DNA from: Acidobacteriota bacterium
Lineage (GTDB): Bacteria; Acidobacteriota; UBA6911; JACQSX01
DNA length: 64,000 bases
Direction: 5' to 3'
NCBI GenBank assembly: GCA_016211105.1
Contig: JACQSX010000050.1
Location: forward strand, 59,347 to 123,346
Below, piece after piece: positions 7,005 through 63,855 of the stretch (positions are counted from its first letter, which is position 1; the number at the start of each line of letters is the position of its first letter). Made by a program: the position numbers and the translations under genes. The notes under the pieces were generated by a model. It saw only the letters and a program-made list of their open reading frames with translations, had not been told where the DNA came from and made no database searches.

Positions 7005-7304
7005 CTAGAAAGTGCCGCGGTTTCCCTTGACTGCAGGAGTATAATGCTGCTCCAACTCTGATGCTTTGAGGCAACGCAAAACTGCATTGTTTACATCCAA
7101 GGCATATCCTCCAGTGAGACACCCCCAACTTCCACCACCGAGAATGGAACCTTGACCGACGCTAGTAGATCGCATAAAGCAGTAGTCGTGAAAGACGTCG
7201 ATGGCCACGAGATCAAAATTCGCTGGCACAAGCAAATTAGCCGTTATCAGTGGATTGTCCTTTTCGTCGCGTGGTTTGGATTTATGTTCGATCTTATGTG
7301 GCAT
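7005..7304 (-). CDS. hypothetical protein (99 aa), weak call
   Basis: Only ORF in a 440-bp gap next to a repeat element; no recognisable domain or clear RBS. Confidence 0.2.
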   Translation of the reverse strand: MPHKIEHKSKPRDEKDNPLITANLLVPANFDLVAIDVFHDYCFMRSTSVGQGSILGGGSWGCLTGGYALDVNNAVLRCLKASELEQHYTPAVKGNRGTF

Positions 7305-7374
7305 TTCTGGTTTTCTACCTGGGAGCCTTAACTATCATACCCGTTACTCTAGTATTCGCTCGAGAGACTAAGTC

Positions 7375-7641
7375 CCTCGATTCATAAGTACGGTAACGTT
7401 TGCTGGTGGAGCTTGCGAGACGAGATCCAGGAGCGATGAGGAGGCGATGCAGCGGACATCGGCGACAACGTGCGACGCCGAGATCGCCCGCAACCCCCAC
7501 CAGCCCGGAGGGTTGCGGCGGGATGGCCCCGCTTTCTTTGTCGCTCCTCCTCGCCAATGAGCCCTGCATTGACTTGTCGTCGCTTCGCGAAATCAGGGCC
7601 ATCGCGCTCGCAACAAACGTTATCGTATTTATGAATCGAGG
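7375..7641. repeat. MITE-like repeat element, copy A (~28-bp terminal inverted repeats CCTCGATTCATAA[G/A]TACG[G/A]TAACGTTTGC)
   Basis: Left TIR 7375-7403 and right TIR 7614-7641 are reverse complements; internal sequence matches the reverse complement of a second copy at 63599-63749 but carries ~115 bp of extra internal sequence. Confidence 0.6.
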
Positions 7642-7695
7642 TACGAAAGGACAGGCACTGCAACAATCGTCGCCAAAACGAGATTGGAGGCACTT

Positions 7696-27330: not shown

Positions 27331-27347
27331 AAACTGCATACAGCCTA

Positions 27348-29600
27348 ATGAAAAGGAATCTGCTAACGATTGTCACCTGGGTAGTAACGCTGTTTCTCAC
27401 GTTGAGTCAGCCTGCCACTCCTGCTCGGGGACCCACAGAGTCGTCTCTACCCGCAGAGACGCGCCCTGGGGCGACTTTCGAACAGTGGGAAGGAGTCTTG
27501 CCTGCCTCTTACCGCACGCCAGCGGTCGGAGAGGTTACTGTCCGTGCCTCGGGAAGAGGGTACCCCTGGATCAACCTGGCCGACGGTCGCGACCTTCCCA
27601 TCTTTTATCCGGAAAAGGACGCGGTAGGGGTGCTGAAAAACCACGCAATGCGACCTTTGTCGCTGGCTGCGGCCGACTTCGATGAGGATGGTGTGCCGGA
27701 CCTGGTGAGTGGTTACGAGGCAGCCGGAGCCGGTTTCCTGCTGGTGCAGCGAGGCAACATTGATTTCCTGCACCCGTACACAGCAGGCGCGCAGCAACGC
27801 AAGGCCTCGGGCGAGGTTAATTCTTTTCCTTTTGCACCGCAGGCGATTGTGGTTGAGTTGCCCGCTGCGCCAGATTTTCTGGGAAGCGGCGACTTTGACG
27901 CCGACGGCCACTGGGATCTTGTAGCGGCTGCGCGGGGAAGCAACCTAGTTCACTGGGCATCGGGCGACGGCCGAGGCGCATTTACAGCAGCAAGGGAAAT
28001 CGCCTTGCCTGGAACCGTCACAGCGCTGGCCACCGGTGATGTCAACAGGGCGGATGGCCTGGAAGACATTCTGGTGGGCGTCTCAGGCAAGAATGGACCA
28101 GAGCTCTTGGTGTTTGAGGGACCGGCGGGAGCCCTGGCGGAGGGTACTGCGGCCGGAGGAAGAGATAAGGGCGCTGAAGGCCTGCTGCATAGGCCGGAAA
28201 GTTTTCCGCTGGATGCCGAGGCAGTTTCCATTGTCACGGGACAGCTCAACCTAGATTATCCGACCGACGTTGCCGTTGCGGCCGGAACCGAGTTACTGAT
28301 CATTTATGGCCGCGACCACAGGCTGTCTTGGAATCAGGAGTCCAGACAGCAAGTAGGTCCGGCGACAACCGAGCGCCTCCAATTTTCAGTCGCGATCCGC
28401 TCTATCGCGGCGGGAGACTTTCGTGGAAATGGTAGCGCTGCTCTGGCCCTGCTATTCAATGATGGTCGCCTGGAGCTCTGGGACGCCGATATCGAGAGGG
28501 AGCGGCAGCAGTTGCAAAGTAATGGCGCCACAACAGCGGCTGAGAGCAGTGCCCTTTCTCACGCCCAGTCCGGCGATGTTCACCGTGCATGGAAGCGCTC
28601 CTGGAATCCGGGAGCGGTGCTCCAAGCTCCTCCCAGTTCCCAAGCTCTATCGGCTCTGCTGGTCAGGACGCGTGCCGCCAGCATTGCGAAAGATGCTCTG
28701 CTGGTGATCGATTCTGTCAGCCGGCAATTGCATCTTTGGGTTGAGAACGAAGTTTCCGACGGGCGATCCGACAACTTCACCAAGCTGGAAAGCGGCTCCT
28801 TGTTGATTTCTGAGACTCTTCAAATGCAGGAATCTCCGGTTTCCGTCTTACCCATGCGCCTGAACGGCGATGCCCTGACTGATCTGGCCATTTTGAAGAG
28901 CGGAGGCCATCCCATTGTGTGGGCCGAGACGGCTCCGGGAGCGATTATCACGGTCAACAGTAGCGGCGACACGTCCGCCCGAGACGCCGTGTTGACGCTG
29001 CGAGAGGCGATGTCGATTGCCAATGGAAGTTTGGCAGTGTCGAGCCTGACTTCTGCAGAAAGGGCTCAGGTTTCCGGAACACCGGCAAATCCAGGGCTGG
29101 ATGAAATCCGTTTTGCAGGAGTGACATCCATTACTGTTGGGGTAGGAGGATTTCCCAGCCCGGGTACATCCAATCCGATTACGATCGACGCAAGATCGGC
29201 GGGAAGAGTGGAGGTCAAACAGGCCGGCAACGCTGGTGTCCAGGTCAGCGTTTCAACCGGCAACAGCACAATTCGGAACCTCGCTATTGGCGGCATCCGA
29301 ATGGGAACGAGGGGGTCCAATGTAGTGGCTGGCAACTACCTCGGTTTTGATCTCAATCAGAACACTTTTGCATCGCCGGGAAGTTCTTATGGCATTTCGG
29401 CTGACAATGGGTCGACTGACAACAGGATCGGTGGAACCACGGCAGCAGATCGCAATGTAATTGCCATGTCGGGCTTCGCGCGTGATGACCTGTCGATTTC
29501 CGGCGGCTCGCACCGCAATCAAGTCCTGGGCAACTACGCCGGCACCGATGTCGCACAGGCACGCAGGCCAAGGGCAATCGACGCGGAATCACGATTGTAG
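27348..29600 (+). CDS. giant secreted FG-GAP/VCBS-repeat, CSLREA and right-handed beta-helix protein, fragment 1 of 3 (frameshifted gene)
   Basis: Signal peptide MKRNLLTIVTWVVTLFLTLSQPA; FG-GAP-like DxDGxxD repeats; CSLREA-like TLREAMSIANGS; beta-helix repeats; reading frame breaks near 29557. Confidence 0.75.
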   Translation: MKRNLLTIVTWVVTLFLTLSQPATPARGPTESSLPAETRPGATFEQWEGVLPASYRTPAVGEVTVRASGRGYPWINLADGRDLPIFYPEKDAVGVLKNHAMRPLSLAAADFDEDGVPDLVSGYEAAGAGFLLVQRGNIDFLHPYTAGAQQRKASGEVNSFPFAPQAIVVELPAAPDFLGSGDFDADGHWDLVAAARGSNLVHWASGDGRGAFTAAREIALPGTVTALATGDVNRADGLEDILVGVSGKNGPELLVFEGPAGALAEGTAAGGRDKGAEGLLHRPESFPLDAEAVSIVTGQLNLDYPTDVAVAAGTELLIIYGRDHRLSWNQESRQQVGPATTERLQFSVAIRSIAAGDFRGNGSAALALLFNDGRLELWDADIERERQQLQSNGATTAAESSALSHAQSGDVHRAWKRSWNPGAVLQAPPSSQALSALLVRTRAASIAKDALLVIDSVSRQLHLWVENEVSDGRSDNFTKLESGSLLISETLQMQESPVSVLPMRLNGDALTDLAILKSGGHPIVWAETAPGAIITVNSSGDTSARDAVLTLREAMSIANGSLAVSSLTSAERAQVSGTPANPGLDEIRFAGVTSITVGVGGFPSPGTSNPITIDARSAGRVEVKQAGNAGVQVSVSTGNSTIRNLAIGGIRMGTRGSNVVAGNYLGFDLNQNTFASPGSSYGISADNGSTDNRIGGTTAADRNVIAMSGFARDDLSISGGSHRNQVLGNYAGTDVAQARRPRAIDAESRL

Positions 29601-29614
29601 ACTCACAGAACAAC

Positions 29615-30736
29615 GTGATTGGGGGCACAGAGGCCGGAGCGGGCAACCTGATTTCCGGGGTAGTAATCGACCGCAGCGTGGGGCCGGATCCGGACGGTAA
29701 CAGAATCCAGGGAAATATCATCGGCCTGAACGCCCGCGGGGACGCGAGGGTGAGTAATCAGTCTTACGGCATCGCTCTTCACTCCGGGAAAGAGACGACA
29801 ATCGGCGGGACATCGCCTGCCGCCCGAAACGTAGTTTCAGGAAACGTGGCAGACGGCATTTTTCTCAATAGCAGTGTCACAGGGATCCAGATTCAGGGCA
29901 ACTATATTGGAACCGATGCCGCCGGTTCTCAGGCCATCGGCAATGGAGACGTTAATACTCCTTTTTCGGAGGAGGCTATTCACATCCAGGGCCCAAAAAA
30001 CATCGTGGGCGGTTCGGTGCCGGGAGCCCGCAATGTCATCTCTGGAAACAGGGGAAGCGGGATTGTCGTCGCTTCCCAGGGGGAAAACCAAATCCTTGGA
30101 AACTACATCGGAGTATCTGCGAGCGGTGCCTCCGCCTTAGGCAATGGCTGGGACGGGATTATCGTGAGCAATTCCGCCAGGAATGTCATCGGCGGCGCGA
30201 CGGCAGGGGCGGGCAACGTCATCTCGGGCAACCGGCGGAACGGCGTCGACATGGGAGGCAATGAATCTACCGGAAACCGGTTGCAGGGAAACCTGATCGG
30301 CACCGATGCCACTGGGACCCAATCCCTCGGAAACAGCGAGGTCGGGGTGAATTTGGGTGGAAACAATAACACCCTCGGAGGATTGACTCCGGCGGAGCGC
30401 AATGTCATCTCCGGAAACACGCTGGATGGAGTGATCATCAGTGGAGTTTTTGGAAACCAGCGGAACAGGATCATCGGGAACTACATTGGCACGGATATCC
30501 GCGGGATTGGGGCGCTCGGCAACGGTGGTAGCGGAGTGCTGTTGATCACCGAAGAGCAGTTTGTCTCGGGGGCACGGAAACCGGCGCAGGCAACACCATC
30601 GCGTTCAACCGCGGTGACGGCGTCTGGGTCAACGCCGGATCGCGTAACTCCATTGTATCCAATTCTATCTTCTCCAACGCGAAACTGGGAATTGAACTGG
30701 GAACCGACTCCAGGACTGATTTGGGCAACGGTGTGA
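29615..30736 (+). CDS. beta-helix repeat protein, fragment 2 of 3 (same gene, shifted frame)
   Basis: Continuous NxIxGNxIGTDAxGxxxLGN beta-helix repeats; frame open from 29489; track start GTG is artefactual. Confidence 0.7.
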   Translation: MIGGTEAGAGNLISGVVIDRSVGPDPDGNRIQGNIIGLNARGDARVSNQSYGIALHSGKETTIGGTSPAARNVVSGNVADGIFLNSSVTGIQIQGNYIGTDAAGSQAIGNGDVNTPFSEEAIHIQGPKNIVGGSVPGARNVISGNRGSGIVVASQGENQILGNYIGVSASGASALGNGWDGIIVSNSARNVIGGATAGAGNVISGNRRNGVDMGGNESTGNRLQGNLIGTDATGTQSLGNSEVGVNLGGNNNTLGGLTPAERNVISGNTLDGVIISGVFGNQRNRIIGNYIGTDIRGIGALGNGGSGVLLITEEQFVSGARKPAQATPSRSTAVTASGSTPDRVTPLYPILSSPTRNWELNWEPTPGLIWATV

Positions 30737-33081
30737 CACCTAATGATCCCGGTGATGCCGACGCGGGTGCCAATCAGCTACAGAACTTTCCGGTCCTGAC
30801 GCCGGCGCCGGGCGGCGCGGGCCTGACCGTAGCGCTCAACAGCAGAAGCACCGATAGCCCCTTTCGCATCGAGCTTTTCTCCAACGCGGCCTGCGATCCC
30901 TCTGGGCACGGGGAAGGCGAACGACTATTGCAGGTGATAGAAAATGTGAGCCTGGATTCGAGCGGCAACTTTGCGCGCACCATTGCATTGCCTTCCGGGC
31001 GGTTTTTCACGGCAACCGCTACCGATCGTAATGGCAATACCTCGGAGTTTTCCGCCTGCGCGGGGGCTGCGCCCCCTTTTGAAGCATTCATCGTCAATTC
31101 AACCTCCGATCGGCCAGACAGGACGACAGGAGATGGCCGCTGCGATACAGGGGAAACCATCGGGGGGCGGGCCGAGTGCACGCTGCGGGCGGCGATCCAG
31201 GAGGCCAACAGCAAGAGCGGGACAGACGTCATTCGTTTCAACATCGCCGGGATGGTTCCTCACCGCATTCAGCCAGGATCTCCGTTGCCTATAGTGACAG
31301 ACCCGGTGACGATTGATGGGTCCTCGCAGCCTGGGTTTGATACTGCGCCTGTGGTGGAGCTAAACGGTCTGGAAGCAGGAAGCCAGGCAAGCGGCCTGGA
31401 AGTGGCTGCCGGGAACTCAACCATCAAGGGGTTGATCATCAGCCAGTTCAAAGTCCATGGGATCTTAATCAGGGGCAGCGGTGCAAACCGCATTGTCAAT
31501 AATCTGATCGGCACTGACAGCAGTGTCTCGCGCGTAATCGGAAACGTGCACTCGGGAATCGCGGTATCGGAATCTGCCAACAACATTATCGGGGGCGAAC
31601 CGGTTGACGGTAACGTTATTGCCGGAAATGGAAATGATGCGATCACCGAAGGCTTCGCCGCCGGTATTTTCATTGCTGGAACAAACGCCAAGAAGAACGT
31701 GATTGCGGGAAACGCGATATTGGCTAATGTCAGAGGGATCTTTATCATCGACGCATCGGGCACGACCATCGGCGGAGAAACGATTCAGCGGGCCAATGCG
31801 ATACGGTTTAATGTCCGTGAAGGCATCGTTATCTCCGGGGCGGCCGTTTCCAATTCCATTCTGGTCAACTCCATCTCCGATAATGGCGCCCTCGGAATTG
31901 ATCTTGCAGGGGACGGCCCTGAGGGGATCGATCTGCGAGACGCAGATACCGGGCCGAACGGTTTGCAGAACGCGGCGGAGATCTATTCAGCGACGGCTAC
32001 GGCCAGCGGCGATACCAGCCGGGTCCGGATGCGGCTTAGAAGCGCTAAGAACGAAACCTTTACCGTTCGATTCTTCACCGGCACTACGCCAGATCCTTCG
32101 GGTTACGGGGAAGGCGATACTTTTGTTCTTACTAGAAACGTCACCACGAGCGACTCAGGCTATGGCCCCACATCATTCGTATCTCCGGTGAAGCTGGGAA
32201 AATTCCTCAGTTGCACAGTCACAGACGCACAGGGCAATACGTCCGAGTTCTCGGCGGCGGCGCCGATCAAGCTCGATAGCGACGGCGATAGCGTGAGCGA
32301 CGAGGAGGAGAATCTTAATGGCGGGGACGCGAACGGGGACTTTACACCCGACAGGCTGCAGCCAAATGTGCAACCCCTCACAACTTCGTCCGGGCGACGT
32401 GTCGCCATCGAAGTTTCGCAAGAGAGTGTGTTAACCAATGCAAGCACGTATCTCGCCGCGTTGGCAGGCGCAACTTTATTTGAAGGCCAGTTTGGAAGGC
32501 CGCTTGGCTTTTACGAGCTGTTTGCCCGATTTACCGTGGGCGCAAAGTCTCCTTTCCAGGTTATGGGTGGTTCAACGACTGTAACGCTCTTTGTCCCACC
32601 CGAACTTAAGTTCACGTCCTACCTTAATTACGGACCGACACCGGACAATCCAACGCCTCACTTTTACCAATTCATGTTTGACGGAAAGACGGGCGCGGAG
32701 TTCAAAACGGGCCGGATTCTGCTTCACCTGGTCGATGGGCAGCGCGGCGATCATGACCTCGCCGCCAATGGAGAGATCACCACGCTGGGCGGGCCGGTCA
32801 TCGGTATGCCGAACAGATTTTTCATTCCTCTTTACCGGTCTGACCCCTCAACCTTTACCGGCTACGCAGTTTCAAATTTTTCTGCGCGTGACGCCAACAT
32901 TCAGTTCACCGCATTGGATTTCGACGGGATTGCGTTGAGCACGCTGAATAACCCAAGCTCATTTCTCCTCAAGCCTGGGAACCAATTGGCGCTGCTGGGG
33001 AGGCAAGTATTTTCCGACGATTATTTAGATCCGCAGAGAGAGACGACTCTGTCCGTCCCGGAGCAGGAAGTAGCAGGCTGA
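30721..33081 (+). CDS. beta-helix repeat protein C-terminal part, fragment 3 of 3 (same gene, shifted frame)
   Basis: Frame open upstream and continues beta-helix repeats across a GGGGG run at 30568-30572; C-terminal domain with DGQRGDHDLAANGEITTLGGP. Confidence 0.7.
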   Translation: MGNGVTPNDPGDADAGANQLQNFPVLTPAPGGAGLTVALNSRSTDSPFRIELFSNAACDPSGHGEGERLLQVIENVSLDSSGNFARTIALPSGRFFTATATDRNGNTSEFSACAGAAPPFEAFIVNSTSDRPDRTTGDGRCDTGETIGGRAECTLRAAIQEANSKSGTDVIRFNIAGMVPHRIQPGSPLPIVTDPVTIDGSSQPGFDTAPVVELNGLEAGSQASGLEVAAGNSTIKGLIISQFKVHGILIRGSGANRIVNNLIGTDSSVSRVIGNVHSGIAVSESANNIIGGEPVDGNVIAGNGNDAITEGFAAGIFIAGTNAKKNVIAGNAILANVRGIFIIDASGTTIGGETIQRANAIRFNVREGIVISGAAVSNSILVNSISDNGALGIDLAGDGPEGIDLRDADTGPNGLQNAAEIYSATATASGDTSRVRMRLRSAKNETFTVRFFTGTTPDPSGYGEGDTFVLTRNVTTSDSGYGPTSFVSPVKLGKFLSCTVTDAQGNTSEFSAAAPIKLDSDGDSVSDEEENLNGGDANGDFTPDRLQPNVQPLTTSSGRRVAIEVSQESVLTNASTYLAALAGATLFEGQFGRPLGFYELFARFTVGAKSPFQVMGGSTTVTLFVPPELKFTSYLNYGPTPDNPTPHFYQFMFDGKTGAEFKTGRILLHLVDGQRGDHDLAANGEITTLGGPVIGMPNRFFIPLYRSDPSTFTGYAVSNFSARDANIQFTALDFDGIALSTLNNPSSFLLKPGNQLALLGRQVFSDDYLDPQRETTLSVPEQEVAG

Positions 33082-33752
33082 CTTAACATGAGAAGCAGCG
33101 CTGCCGCCCAGGCGACAATCGTTAGCGGATTCCTTCTCATTAGGACCCTTATTCTAGCTTTAAGACTCTCACCACTCCAAGATCCGGCATTAAAGGAAAG
33201 CACGCAAGGGAAAAACAGGGTAGAGTCTTCTATTCTTACCGATAGGGGAACAACCGGTGGAGGGCTGGAGATTTACCTCATTCGGGTTTTCAACCTGCTT
33301 TTGTACAACACGTCGACTGCTTACCGAACCGAGCCCCTATTCTAACTTTGCAGCCTGATTCGGTCCAGTGCGCGAAGTGCCGAATCAAAAATCTACTCGA
33401 AGGATTCGTTGACTGATTTAGGTTGCTTGAAATTGACCGACTGCCTACTTCTGAGGCAAACAAGAATCAACTGCAAGGGGGGGGACCAAAGCCGCCGCCG
33501 CTCAAAAGTCAAAGGAGCGCGTCCACTTCAGACTAGCGAACGGCCACGCAGACCGGAATCGTAACCGACGGAACCGCGACGATCAGAGAGCGCCTGGAAG
33601 AACGGACTCGCTTCGGGGAAGCCGCCGCCAGAAGAGCTGCTGGCTCTTAAATGAACAACATTGGTATCGAGGAAGGGACCTGCAGGTGAAGTCAATAACT
33701 TACGTCCTTCGCGGTCAAAGAAGTTTCTGAAAGCGGCCGGAACGTTCCGCCA

Positions 33753-55278: not shown

Positions 55279-58200
55279 TTATTGCAGCCGCGTTACCGGC
55301 AGTGTTGTGAACTGGCCGGCTTGGCTGCCCAATTGAATCGCGGTCGCCGCGATGCCGCCCCCTTCGGCGGTCACCGTCAGCGTCCCTTCAAAATTGTTGG
55401 TGTCCGCACTGGGGAAAAGCTCGTCAATAAAACGGGCCACGTGACCACCTGCTTTCAGCGCTATCGTCGTTGTGCCTCCCGCGACCGGTTGTCCGCTGGC
55501 ATTACGCAATACCAGGTGCAACGTTACTGCTCTGCCCGTCGCGTTGACCGCAACGCCCGTGTTGATCCCGGTTTCCCGGCTGCGACGAACTGGCGAGATG
55601 AATCCGTTGAAGCTACCGCCTCCGCCGACGCCGGCAATCCCGATGCCCGGCAACGTGAAGCGTAGCACTCCCCCCACGACTCCTTCCGTGACATTTGCTC
55701 GAGCCGAGCCAGTGGTGACTGCCCCCAGACCGTCGGTCGTGAAAACGGCCCCGCCCTGAGGAGCGATGTCAAACGGAATATCGCTGGCTGAGGCCCCGCC
55801 GTTGACAGAGATCGGTAGACGGTTACCGTCATCGTTGAGAAAAGCCAGCTCCCCTCGGGCCCGCTCCGTGGCCGAGGGATTAGTCAAAAACAGAGAGGAC
55901 GAGAGATTGCCGCCATTGCCGAGGTGAGCAAAATAGACCGTCCCGCCGGCGGGCTCTGGAGAAATCGGGGTGACTGGGAGCGTAGTAAATTCACCAGGCC
56001 TTCCACCCACTTGAATCGCCGTTGCCGCGATTGGGCTGCCCGTGACCGAGAGCGTTCCTTGGAAATCTCCCAGGCCCGGAAATAGTTCCTGAATAAAGCG
56101 GGCCACATGGCCATCGACTGCGATGGGTAGTTGTCCTTGGCGAAAAGCGGCGCCATTGAGACCCTTGAGTGTCAGCCTCAGATTGGTTGCGGGCCCAAAA
56201 TTGAAAACCGCGATTCCCGTGCTGACTCCCTGGGCACTGTTTCTAGTAATTGGCGTGATAAAGGAATCTACAAGCTGACTCTCTCCTACTCCGGCAATTC
56301 CCAATCCGGGAGCTGAAAAACGAACCACTCCGCCCAGCGGCACATTGGAGAGCACCTGGGCTGAGCCTGTCACGAGAGTCCCTATTCCATCGCTGTTGAA
56401 CGTGACGCTGCCCAGCGGCGGGATAGTAAAGTCGACGCCGTTGTCGACAGGCCCCCCATTCAACGCCAGCGGCAACGGTTTACCATCATCATCGGAGAAA
56501 TCGATGCCGCCTTCGGCCGTTGTGGTTGCAGAGGAATTCGTCAGATCTACAGAAGAGACAAACTGCGACCCGTTGCCCAACTGGGCAAACAGGAACAAGT
56601 GTAGGATCTTCTCCACATTAATGATGCTGTAGGCGCCCCCCGTGACCGGATCGGTAACCAACGCGGAAGCATTTCGTTGCTCTCCAATCTCACCAGCCAC
56701 ATCTGTTCCCGTGTTGCCCTTTTCTCCCGAACCTTTTGAAAGAACACTGGCGCTAAAACCGCCGTTTAACACAACCCTGTCTGTCCCACCTCCGCCATCG
56801 ATGTTCTCCCTCTCCCCGGGCGGCACGTCTCCAGCCCGGAGGATAATTGTGTCATCACCGTTGCCGCCGAGCATGTTGTCTCTGCCGGTTCCACCAAGCA
56901 AGGTGTCGTGGCCCCCGCGGCCGTCTAAAGTGTCATTTGCAGGCCGACCATCCAGAAAGTCATTCCCTTCGCCTCCGACCAGATTGTCAATCCCGGGGCC
57001 GCCAACCAAAACCTGGTTCGGGACACCCGGGAGCGTGGTACTGGTGGTCGTCTGCGTGCGGGTTGTCGTGGTTACGGTGACGAATGTGCTGGTAGCCGTC
57101 CGGGTTGTGGACGTAGCGGTGCCAGTGGGAGAAGTGCCGGTTGTTGAGGTGGCAGTGCCCGTCACGGACGTTGCAGTTCCTGTTGTTGAAGGACTCGTCG
57201 TGGAAGTAGCGCTGCCGGTCGTGGTAGTGGCAGTAGATGACGTTCCGCTTCCTGTGGTTGAAGTACCCGTCGAAGAGGTGGGTGGGATCGTTGTAGTTGT
57301 GGTTATCGTTGTCGTGCCCGTGGTCGACGTCCCCGTAGCGGTAGTCGAGGAGCTTGTCAGGGTAGCAGTCGCCGTCGTGGTGGTCACCGTCCCCGTCGTC
57401 GTGCCAGTTGTCGTCGTCGTCGTGGACACGCTGAGTTGTTGATTTCCGAAATCCACACCCAAAGCAATCGCATCGCTCGCGGTTGCGACGTCCGGGTTTG
57501 GCGTGGTCTGTTTCCAGCCGGGTTGGAGAACCTCTCGGACCTTGAATGTCCCCGCACTTAAATTGACGAAGTTGTAATTTCCGCCTGAGTCTGTAAGCTG
57601 CGAGGCCTCTCCACTGTCCAAGATTCCGTTGCCGTTATCATCCAGGAAGATTCTCCAGCCTCCGATTCCCGGCTCGCCTGCATCCCTGACACCATCGCCG
57701 TCGAGATCTTCGAATTTCGTCCCCCTGATCGAAGCAAGCTTAAAGTTGCCGAAGTTAACGCCTGATCGATCGATACCACTGCTAGATGCGAAGTCGCTCG
57801 GGTCTGAAGTCGTCTGTTTCCAGCCGGCTTGCAGCACCTCTCGCACCCTAAGTGTTCCTGGGCCCAGATTACCGAAAGTGTAGTTTCCGCTTGCGTCCGT
57901 AAGCTGCGAAGCCTCTCCGCTGTCCAAGGTTCCATTGAGATTATCGTCCAGAAAGATCCTCCAGCCCGAAAGCCCCGGCTCGCCTGTGTCTTTGACCCCA
58001 TCGCCGTCCAGATCTTCGAATTTTGTTCCACTGATTGTGATTAGCTTGAAGTTGCCGAAATCCGCTCCGGAAACATTTTGGCCGCTCACCGTCGTGATAT
58101 TGCGATCCCCGGCGGTCTGTTTCCAGCCAGGCGTCGGAACCAGCCACTCTCGGAGCCTGCAAGTTCCGGGACCCACAGGGGTGGGTGCACCTCCAAGACT

Positions 58201-58836
58201 GTAACTCCCATTCGGAAGGGTTGCAACCACTGGCTCTCCCACATCGCGTGTTCCATTATTGTCGTCGTCGCAAAAAATCGTGAAACCCTGCAGGCCCGGC
58301 TCGCCGGAATCCTTCACGCCGTCGCCTTCGGTGTCATCAAACTTCGTTCCGCTGATTGTCACATACTTAAAGTTGCCAAAATCCACACCTGACCGGGAGC
58401 CTCCGGTCGTATTGACCGTTCGTTCGGGGGTAGTCTGCGTCCAGCCGGACTGAACGACTTCGCGGACGTTGTAAATGGCCTCAGTCACCGAAAGCGAATA
58501 ATTTCCGCTGGCATCGCTGGTTGTCGAAGTCTCTCCCGAGTCGAGCCTCCCGTCGTTGTCGAGATCGACGTAGACTGTCCAGCCTTGCAGTCCCGACTCC
58601 CCAGGCTCTTTGACGCCGTCGCCATCTTTGTCCTCAAATACCTGTCCGCTGATTGTCCTGGGGGCGGCCCCGAATTTATCGTCAGAGGTCCGTTTCTCAA
58701 ATCCCTGCGCGGCGACCCCCTCTACAGTTCCCGCGACTGCAGAACCCAGTATGACCATGAGTGCCGCCAATACAAACGAACGCGGGCAGAAACATTCAAG
58801 CTGTGTGCGTGAGGTCGGTACTTGCTCTTTTTTCAT
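55279..58836 (-). CDS. large surface adhesin-like protein: SdrD-B/Cna-B-like repeats, Thr-rich linker, RTX-type Ca-binding repeats, two copies of shared C-terminal domain
   Basis: Repeated ISGTKFEDLDGDGV...GW units; ~130-aa Thr/Ser-rich tract; GGxGxDxLxGG nonapeptides; C-terminus ...AIQLGSQAGQFTTLPVTRLQ; start set at MKKEQ (58836). Confidence 0.8.
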   Translation of the reverse strand: MKKEQVPTSRTQLECFCPRSFVLAALMVILGSAVAGTVEGVAAQGFEKRTSDDKFGAAPRTISGQVFEDKDGDGVKEPGESGLQGWTVYVDLDNDGRLDSGETSTTSDASGNYSLSVTEAIYNVREVVQSGWTQTTPERTVNTTGGSRSGVDFGNFKYVTISGTKFDDTEGDGVKDSGEPGLQGFTIFCDDDNNGTRDVGEPVVATLPNGSYSLGGAPTPVGPGTCRLREWLVPTPGWKQTAGDRNITTVSGQNVSGADFGNFKLITISGTKFEDLDGDGVKDTGEPGLSGWRIFLDDNLNGTLDSGEASQLTDASGNYTFGNLGPGTLRVREVLQAGWKQTTSDPSDFASSSGIDRSGVNFGNFKLASIRGTKFEDLDGDGVRDAGEPGIGGWRIFLDDNGNGILDSGEASQLTDSGGNYNFVNLSAGTFKVREVLQPGWKQTTPNPDVATASDAIALGVDFGNQQLSVSTTTTTTGTTTGTVTTTTATATLTSSSTTATGTSTTGTTTITTTTTIPPTSSTGTSTTGSGTSSTATTTTGSATSTTSPSTTGTATSVTGTATSTTGTSPTGTATSTTRTATSTFVTVTTTTRTQTTTSTTLPGVPNQVLVGGPGIDNLVGGEGNDFLDGRPANDTLDGRGGHDTLLGGTGRDNMLGGNGDDTIILRAGDVPPGERENIDGGGGTDRVVLNGGFSASVLSKGSGEKGNTGTDVAGEIGEQRNASALVTDPVTGGAYSIINVEKILHLFLFAQLGNGSQFVSSVDLTNSSATTTAEGGIDFSDDDGKPLPLALNGGPVDNGVDFTIPPLGSVTFNSDGIGTLVTGSAQVLSNVPLGGVVRFSAPGLGIAGVGESQLVDSFITPITRNSAQGVSTGIAVFNFGPATNLRLTLKGLNGAAFRQGQLPIAVDGHVARFIQELFPGLGDFQGTLSVTGSPIAATAIQVGGRPGEFTTLPVTPISPEPAGGTVYFAHLGNGGNLSSSLFLTNPSATERARGELAFLNDDGNRLPISVNGGASASDIPFDIAPQGGAVFTTDGLGAVTTGSARANVTEGVVGGVLRFTLPGIGIAGVGGGGSFNGFISPVRRSRETGINTGVAVNATGRAVTLHLVLRNASGQPVAGGTTTIALKAGGHVARFIDELFPSADTNNFEGTLTVTAEGGGIAATAIQLGSQAGQFTTLPVTRLQ

Positions 58837-58919
58837 CTTTAATTTTCCCGATCCCGGAGGCGGCACTCTCCGGCAAATCGAGGTGTCATTTGGCGCGACG
58901 CCATCGCCTGCTCTATCCG

Positions 58920-58994
58920 TGAGGGTGAGACGGATCTCATTTAGTGAGGGTGAGACGGATCTCATTTAGTGAGGGTGAGACGGATTTCATTTAC
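58920..58994. repeat. three tandem direct copies of a 25-bp repeat (TGAGGGTGAGACGGATCTCATTTAG) upstream of the adhesin gene
   Basis: Copies at 58920-58944, 58945-58969 (identical) and 58970-58994 (2 mismatches), 84-158 bp upstream of start codon 58836 on the minus strand. Confidence 0.7.
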
Positions 58995-63418: not shown

Positions 63419-63496
63419 AAATCATGACTACGCAGTTTGCTGGCCGCCACTCAAATGGCTCCTTTGCGGCGCTATGCGCGTCAGGAAGCGGACCCT

Positions 63497-63578
63497 CAAA
63501 TGCGGAATTCGGAATGCGGATGGCGAATTTCGGTGGACTTTTTACATTCCGCATTCCGAAATCCGAAATCCGCATTGC
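63497..63578. other. imperfect inverted repeat / predicted hairpin between MFP and RND genes
   Basis: GGAATGCGGA (63511-63520) pairs with TCCGCATTCC (63549-63558), extended by imperfect AAATGCGGAATTCGG / CCGAAATCCGCATTG arms; no T-tract. Confidence 0.4.
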
Positions 63579-63598
63579 AGTTGTCCGCTTGCTTCGTA

Positions 63599-63749
63599 CC
63601 TCGATTCATAAATACGATAACGTTTGCTGCGAGCGCGATAGCGCCGATTTCGCGAAGCGACGACGATGTCCCCGCATCGACTCCTCCTCGCTCCTTGATC
63701 TCGCCTCGCAAGCCCCATTAGCAAACGTTACCGTATTTATGAATCGAGG
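63599..63749. repeat. MITE-like repeat element, copy B (same family as 7375-7641, opposite orientation, shorter)
   Basis: Terminal inverted repeats CCTCGATTCATAAATACGATAACGTTTGC ... GCAAACGTTACCGTATTTATGAATCGAGG; lies between MFP and RND pump genes. Confidence 0.6.
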
Positions 63750-63855
63750 TACTTACGCGCGCGGCTCAGAATTTTTCACACCTTCTGACGGTGGCAGCTT
63801 CGCCGCGCGAGGTCTCTGCGACGAGCGTTCCTTGAAAAGCCGCCAGTAAAAATTT

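Follow-up and report, generated by a model that had tools for sequence, protein, structure and literature searches.

Two copies of a putative hairpin-forming MITE in an Acidobacteriota contig and a sister family in Desulfobacterota

Correia elements (Neisseria), RUP (Streptococcus pneumoniae) and ERIC/IRU (enterobacteria) are intergenic elements of 100–300 nt with terminal inverted repeats and long hairpins, often co-transcribed with their neighbors, in which full-length and internally deleted size classes coexist. They leave a TA duplication or none that is defined, and none of them is known to range beyond a single genus or family. REP/BIME/REPIN sequences, which are associated with RAYT transposases, consist of palindromic units and inverted doublets at intergenic sites and may stabilize mRNA between cistrons; in the E. 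coli malEFG operon, REP hairpins stabilize the upstream mRNA. Within the IS5 family, the groups IS1031, ISL2 and IS427 duplicate 2–4 bp, often TNA, and the target of maize PIF was reportedly given as CWCTTAGWG by Zhang et al. in 2001. A 3-bp TTA/TAA duplication with inverted repeats of 14–25 bp is the signature of PIF/Harbinger elements and of Tourist MITEs, and their transposase resembles that of bacterial IS5 (PMC2213677). Both IS5 and PIF/Harbinger produce 3-bp duplications (PMC4122938).

The window examined here is the whole stretch of 64,000 nt that was analyzed from contig JACQSX010000050.1 of an Acidobacteriota bacterium. Two regions within it, copy A and copy B, are probably copies of a non-coding, hairpin-forming DNA transposon (MITE) mobilized in trans by an IS5/PIF-Harbinger-like DDE transposase. 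Elements of this kind are discrete and non-coding, occur in multiple copies strictly between genes, and are scattered over unrelated loci of several uncultured lineages, with hundreds of relatives among uncultured bacteria of sediment and soil. They are like Tourist MITEs and PIF-Harbinger/IS5 elements in being short and non-coding, in their terminal inverted repeats, in the 3-bp TTA/TAA duplication and in the preference for an extended palindromic target (here C-TWA-G). They differ in their bacterial host, in longer repeats (about 30–34 bp) that have no known match, in that no partner transposase was found, and in an interior that, instead of being arbitrary sequence, folds back extensively into one or two hairpins. 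The likeness to Correia, RUP and ERIC extends to length, terminal repeats, intergenic site, hairpins and size classes; however, the duplication here is TNA, and the ends are common to Acidobacteria- and Desulfobacterota-labelled MAGs, with one database copy labelled NC10. REP/BIME/REPIN sequences are similar in their palindromic units, inverted doublets, intergenic position and possible intercistronic role, but REPs have GTAG/CGTC heads and no target duplications, whereas other heads and clear TWA duplications are seen here. A Porphyromonas gingivalis MITE also has length classes that derive from a repeated internal module (PMC4596501); there the module is a tandem minisatellite, whereas the Desulfobacterota modules described below are nested palindromes of 24–30 nt (inserts of 28, 58 and 88 nt). 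As far as Rfam and the searchable literature show, the family was previously undescribed: it did not appear in literature searches on the sequence, on MITEs in Desulfobacterales or on MITEs in Acidobacteria. The kind of element is ordinary, and the moderately unusual features are ends common to several phyla, a maintained foldback interior, modular length variation and the lack of a partner among the sequences searched.

An earlier, sequence-only reading of the window had described two oppositely oriented copies of 267 and 151 nt with terminal inverted repeats of about 28 nt. Both copies and their orientation were recovered, at slightly greater width, and the repeats were found to be 34 nt long (consensus GTACCTCGATTCATAAATACGRTAACGTTTGCTG). 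Copy A, the full-length or long form, spans 7372–7644 on the plus strand (273 nt; nhmmer score 298.8, E 1e-89 against the long-form profile). By repeat search, its left repeat lies at 7372–7405 (plus; GTCCCTCGATTCATAAGTACGGTAACGTTTGCTG) and its right repeat at 7611–7644 (minus), and these arms are 88% complementary. Copy B, an internally deleted short form, spans 63596–63752 on the minus strand (157 nt) and is inverted relative to copy A; its repeats, located in the same way, lie at 63596–63629 (plus; the right end in copy A orientation) and 63719–63752 (minus; the left end), with 32 of 34 positions matching. The window has four occurrences of a 29-nt repeat core (≤ 3 mismatches), whereas 100 dinucleotide-preserving shuffles have none.

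Comparison of the two showed that reverse-complementing copy B gives copy A except for 115 nt at 7462–7576 (plus strand), which copy B lacks. This central segment, conserved also in long-form copies from other genomes, contains one arm of each internal hairpin (the right arm of hairpin 1, the left arm of hairpin 2). Copy B is a deletion derivative: with the central 115 nt lost, the left arm of hairpin 1 now adjoins the right arm of hairpin 2. The difference of about 115 nt noted previously was thus borne out, but not its description as extra sequence in copy A: the long form of about 270 nt is the standard one, since copies from other genomes match copy A over its whole length, including the central 115 nt. 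Outside the repeats, only 3 nt are alike in the flanks of A and B, and beyond these the likeness falls to the level of shuffled sequence, so the element has defined ends. A likeness of 20 nt between the right flanks of A and B was considered as real homology and rejected (p about 0.15). The copies coincide with short-read contig breaks, in that Logan contigs of the same genome end within the terminal repeats. These breaks were rejected as evidence of copy number, because the right arm of copy A and the left arm of copy B have a 31-mer in common that explains them.

Both copies lie between genes, copy A close upstream of an acyl-CoA dehydrogenase gene and copy B inside an efflux operon, as had been described. 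Hydantoinase A and B genes (Pfam) are found upstream of copy A, whose right end is 51 nt before the ATG (7696) of the acyl-CoA dehydrogenase; a CN-hydrolase gene is next (Pfam). Between hydantoinase B and copy A, a 59-codon ORF (7152–7331) has a hydrophobic C-terminal half and no Pfam match, and may be what is left of a truncated membrane-protein gene beside the insertion. Copy B occupies a 437-nt spacer in a TetR-OEP-MFP-RND operon, between the MFP stop (63418) and the ATG of the RND pump (63856). Because the interior is GC-rich and palindromic, all frames on both strands are open in the element. None of the four ORFs that cross the copies matched a Pfam family, in agreement with the earlier statement that no transposase is encoded, and a Pfam scan of the 51 long ORFs of the window revealed no transposase, recombinase or Y1 domain.

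These open frames were used to trace more copies, by searching translations of the element against protein databases. Concatenated translations first returned two proteins with termini that run into element copies (L153 and L154). An exhaustive HMMER search with a 91-residue translation of copy A yielded 43 representative clusters, and a profile built from eleven such peptides yielded 181 protein clusters, all of them spurious ORFs over copies. The similar peptide strings remarked on in the window are therefore artefacts of the repeat, as had been supposed. Organism labels on two of the 181 clusters were an Acidobacteria bacterium and a candidate division NC10 bacterium. Two real genes, for a fatty-acid hydroxylase and a GatB-like protein (P0001 and P0002), are mis-extended into an element copy. 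An element model would clean up annotation in Acidobacteriota and Desulfobacterota MAGs, where there are at least 181 spurious clusters as well as wrongly extended genes.

DNA was recovered for eight further full copies (a short form among them) and for two fragments (L003 and L017). The recovered copies are those at L153, L154, L160, L161, L165, L166 (two copies, L166a and L166b), L167 and L170; all are intergenic, at unrelated loci with unrelated neighbor genes. The long forms measure 267–270 nt, are about 80% identical to copy A over the full length and score 250–298 bits with nhmmer, while L166b is a different short form that consists of the ends and hairpin 1 only. The ends form a graded series, from GTACCTCGATTCATAAATACG… in the window through GTGCCTCGTTTCATAAATACG… in L166a and GTGTCTCGTTCCATAAATACG… in L165 and L167 (with T for the seventh base C in L167) to GTGCTCACTTTCATAAATACG… in L154, and L153, L160, L161 and L170 have ends of the form GTGTCCCGTCCCAGGAATACC… (the CCCAGG subfamily). 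The window ends are the nearest of this series to the Desulfobacterota family described below. The exact window-type end pattern (…TAACGTTTG) had no matches in metagenome contigs, viral contigs also returned none, and a blastn search of plasmid records with the 116-nt consensus of the sister family and with copy A gave no real match. On the JGI contig L154, positions 1–208 are an inverted near-duplicate of positions 2040–2350 (element copy and flank, 2 kb away), probably a fold-back assembly artefact caused by the palindrome.

Flanks of the seven closest copies, both window copies included, are given here in the orientation of copy A together with the −4 and +4 bases. Perfect 3-bp duplications were found in four of the seven, namely L154 (C-TCA…TCA-T), L165 (C-TAA…TAA-A), L166a (G-TAA…TAA-G) and L167 (G-TTA…TTA-G), and the middle base varies in concert on both sides; the window-type family therefore also makes 3-bp TNA duplications. 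The other three are L166b (C-TAA…TAG-A), copy A (C-TAA…GAA-A) and copy B (G-TAA…GAA-G). Target-site duplications, which had been proposed as a check, are thus present at the family level and imperfect at the window copies, both of which carry the pair TAA/GAA (2 of 3 positions). At copy A, a presumed duplication copy TAA with C at −4 lies on the left (7369–7371, plus strand) and the imperfect GAA, with 2 of 3 positions matching TAA, on the right (7645–7647, plus strand). At copy B, the plus strand reads TTA at 63753–63755 (TAA in copy A orientation) and TTC at 63593–63595 (GAA in copy A orientation). That the two copies owe their shared TAA/GAA flanks to recombination or inversion was rejected on logic, since inversion swaps flanks and does not equalize them. 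A clean 3-bp duplication is missing from all four CCCAGG-subfamily copies, two of which are compatible with TA.

A sister family with the common terminal sequence GTCCNTCGATTCATAAATACGRTAACG was identified by searching one genome per species, together with metagenome contigs, for the 22-nt terminal pattern TCGATTCATAANTACGNTAACG. This pattern was found at 31 genome loci and at least 120 metagenome loci (more than 150 in total). Nearly all of the 31 genome loci are labelled Desulfobacterota (Desulfobacterales, Desulfatiglandales, "Deltaproteobacteria"), the exceptions being two from one Pseudomonadota-labelled MAG and two from one Acidobacteria MAG. The Desulfobacterota form is a compact 116-nt unit (64 distinct copies among the matches listed), with longer classes of 140–211 nt also present. 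The pattern begins exactly 5 nt inside the element end, as in the window, and the 5 nt ahead of it, which were outside the query, are GTCCN, equal to the left end of copy A.

Among the matches listed, the same triplet flanks both ends in 88 of 116 distinct copies (TAA/TAA or TTA/TTA), and only 2 copies pair TAA with TTA; C occupies −4 in 109 of 116 and G occupies +4 in 109 of 116. Where these positions depart from C or G, the first G and last C of the element stay unchanged; the end bases are thus independent of −4 and +4, and the duplication is 3 bp (TWA) inside a palindromic CTWAG target. By the evidence of these flanks, the sister-family copies are insertions. None of the 88 copies with enough flanking DNA, again among the matches listed, lies inside a long ORF, and orientation to the neighbor genes has no strong bias (28 same, 17 opposite, 13 between convergent and 11 between divergent genes among the matches listed).

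Length variation in the sister family is modular. The classes of 140, 144, 174 and 204 nt contain GC-rich palindromic modules of 24–30 nt, inserted right after GTGCT of the 116-nt element. Each module is nested in the GAGCTC center of the previous one, which gives inserts of 28, 58 and 88 nt, with inner and outer modules reverse-complementary to each other. Such nesting was seen in L010, L011, L026, L027, L076 and other Desulfobacterota loci, and it looks like either self-nesting mini-insertions or hairpin-templated growth. One Desulfobacterota copy (L071, minus strand, about 415 nt) is split by an unrelated insertion of about 300 nt, and at L057 (2952–4066) two inverted copies bracket a 134-residue gene in a composite-like arrangement without a transposase.

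Folded singly, each window copy gave one long hairpin as its best structure, with −139.3 kcal/mol (z −7.9) for copy A and −74.4 kcal/mol (z −10.0) for copy B. When three copies of about 80% identity were folded together using RNAalifold, a terminal-repeat stem carrying two hairpins of about 100 nt was preferred; this consensus pairs 94% of cells and has compensatory change in 20 of its 96 pairs, compared with 86–90% paired and 9–14 compensatory pairs for single-hairpin folds in the same comparison. About half of the compensatory pairs fall within the terminal repeats, where concerted change of both ends is expected for a transposon. Those outside the terminal repeats show, on the predicted structure, that foldback potential has been maintained, and a model in which junk separates two binding sites does not predict compensatory changes in the internal hairpins. 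In a G-U pair asymmetry test, neither strand of the long forms folded much better than the other. An origin of the long form as a tandem duplication of one hairpin was rejected, given that hairpins 1 and 2 are identical at 48 of 106 positions as direct repeats, which is the shuffled level. The 116-nt sister family gave a weak RNAalifold consensus only (−8.5 kcal/mol). The terminal 27 nt or so are conserved in sequence with or without the local ATAAATACG-GTAA-CGTATTTAT hairpin of Desulfobacterota, which is absent in the window type. Since the end sequence is kept even where the local hairpin is absent, this conservation points to a putative protein-binding site rather than to structure.

In the proposed mechanism, an element of about 270 nt with 34-bp terminal inverted repeats around a GC-rich interior, able to form one long hairpin or two of about 100 nt, would be bound at its terminal 27 nt or so by a DDE transposase supplied in trans. 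Its cuts in the two target strands would lie 3 bp apart, as is the case for IS5 (bacterial) and PIF/Harbinger (eukaryotic, with Tourist as its MITEs), and the flanks of the family as a whole show the footprint of staggered 3-bp cleavage at TNA, as read from aligned sequences. The assignment to an IS5-like enzyme is made with moderate confidence; it is drawn from the length and sequence of the duplication and from the target, no autonomous partner having been found. An autonomous element with matching ends was sought in the window, in about 170 fetched loci and in plasmid records, without success. Inverted end pairs 450–6000 bp apart were limited to two neighboring MITEs in L057, clustering of the ORFs adjoining copies gave no recurrent transposase, and a generic inverted-repeat search across all loci gave no autonomous partner. 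An IS3/IS407-like element near the L160 copy was rejected as a partner because its ends are unrelated. Derivation from IS630/Tc1 elements, as for Correia and RUP with their TA duplication, was rejected because the duplications here are 3 bp (TAA, TTA, TCA), only the CCCAGG subfamily being compatible with TA in two of its four copies.

If co-transcribed, copy A would form a hairpin in the 5′ leader of the acyl-CoA dehydrogenase mRNA and copy B one between the MFP and RND cistrons, and these hairpins could affect termination, processing or mRNA stability. The element in the window is a candidate modifier of expression for both the acyl-CoA dehydrogenase gene and the RND efflux operon. Consensus scans of copy A detected no sigma-70-like promoter, and terminator-like sites occurred only at the rate seen in shuffled sequence.

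The palindromic form of the elements invites a different account, in which they are REP/REPIN-type sequences moved as single-stranded hairpins by a RAYT (IS200/IS605-like Y1) transposase, like the BIME/REPIN doublets of proteobacteria. The Desulfobacterota elements do resemble two inverted hairpin units parted by TWA, each unit with a conserved internal loop of TCGATTC opposite TCACTC; single-unit versions of 47–64 nt exist, and the window-type elements are nearly perfect palindromes. Y1 transposition, however, makes no target duplication, and perfect TNA duplications are seen in four window-type copies, while the flanking TWA of the sister family is concerted on its two sides (88 copies versus 2 discordant among the matches listed). 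The element heads are GTAC, GTCC, GTGC or GTGT, not the GTAG or CGTC reported for REPs (PMC3733652), and the Y1 domain is absent from the 51 long ORFs of the window, which together leave this account very improbable. Less remote, and still improbable, is the view that the repeats are structured RNAs or cis-regulatory modules, for instance hairpins in leaders or between cistrons that act on termination, processing or mRNA stability, and that selection rather than transposition accounts for them, an alternative that the sequence-only reading had offered. The very stable folding (z −7.9 and −10), the compensatory change in 20 of 96 predicted pairs among three copies of about 80% identity, and the position of copy B between two cistrons, in a spacer whose orthologs in two relatives hold a large but different palindrome, would all suit such a module. 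It does not fit with the target-site duplications that mark the copies as insertions, nor with the opposite orientations of A and B to their surrounding genes and the positions of copies elsewhere, where the adjoining genes have unrelated functions and are arranged convergently, divergently or in tandem. Folding is much the same on either strand, roughly half of the compensatory changes fall within the end repeats, as expected of a transposon, and Rfam gave no match for the window and eight loci at gathering thresholds, with only chance-level matches at E values up to 10.

ORFs through both copies give similar peptides, which might suggest that the two copies are what is left, after divergence, of a duplicated gene segment or an ancient segmental duplication. 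The chance of this is negligible: the peptides belong to no Pfam family, homology ends at the repeat ends with flanks at the shuffled level, and the same element lies at unrelated loci of other genomes. Further copies at unrelated intergenic loci, discrete ends and 3-bp duplications in relatives instead bear out the non-autonomous, MITE-like element that had first been suggested. Beyond this MITE reading, a broader proposal would be a cross-phylum superfamily of foldback MITEs (Acidobacteria, Desulfobacterota and candidate division NC10 labels) with ends of about 27 nt that are read by a yet-unlinked transposase, with hairpins that are selected and grow by self-nesting modules, and with some copies retained by the host as intercistronic or leader hairpins for mRNA stability. 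It is suggested by the compensatory changes, the nested 28-, 58- and 88-nt modules and the large palindrome in the MFP-RND spacer of relatives, and we regard it as doubtful. Ends shared across phyla can help to identify the transposase and to follow horizontal transfer between bacteria of sediment and soil.

The spacer that holds copy B contains a second, unrelated palindrome of about 118 nt (63475–63592), 3 nt upstream of copy B. Its arms consist of GGAATGCGGA-like short repeats, it occurs once in the window, and contigs from another sample of the same genome break there (L156). Two relatives (Acidobacteriia) have the same TetR-OEP-MFP-RND operon with an MFP-RND spacer of 231–232 nt (L157, 5207–5438; L159, 5132–5362). 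Both spacers contain a different palindrome of about 165 nt, with arms GGAGGTGATAGGGAATAGGTGGTAGG…, that is 80% identical between the two but inverted. These operons are without the element, but they are only about 65% identical to that of the window and their spacers cannot be aligned with the window spacer; the closest relatives of the efflux operon or of its membrane-fusion protein reach only 63–65% identity and did not yield an alignable empty site. The MFP-RND spacer is either an insertion hotspot for palindromes or a site where a large intercistronic hairpin is useful. A useful hairpin there, akin by analogy to the mal REP hairpins of E. coli, is possible but unsupported.

Other repeats in the window are of different kinds. 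An inverted repeat of 115 nt has arms 5.6 kb apart (27344–27457 and 33030–33144). One arm coincides with the beginning of a large secreted-protein gene (ATG near 27349, signal-peptide region), and the other repeats that 5′ end in inverted form, with a stop after 39 codons; the repeat is a gene start in duplicate rather than a mobile element. Large repeat-protein genes (SdrD_B and unannotated) contain tandem repeats of 306 nt (57493–58395) and about 183 nt (29996–30419). At 58919–58993, three tandem 25-nt units (GTGAGGGTGAGACGGATCTCATTTA), two of them identical and one with a single different base, overlap the start of a 1228-residue ORF on the minus strand (55279–58965) with SdrD_B and RTX-repeat Pfam matches.
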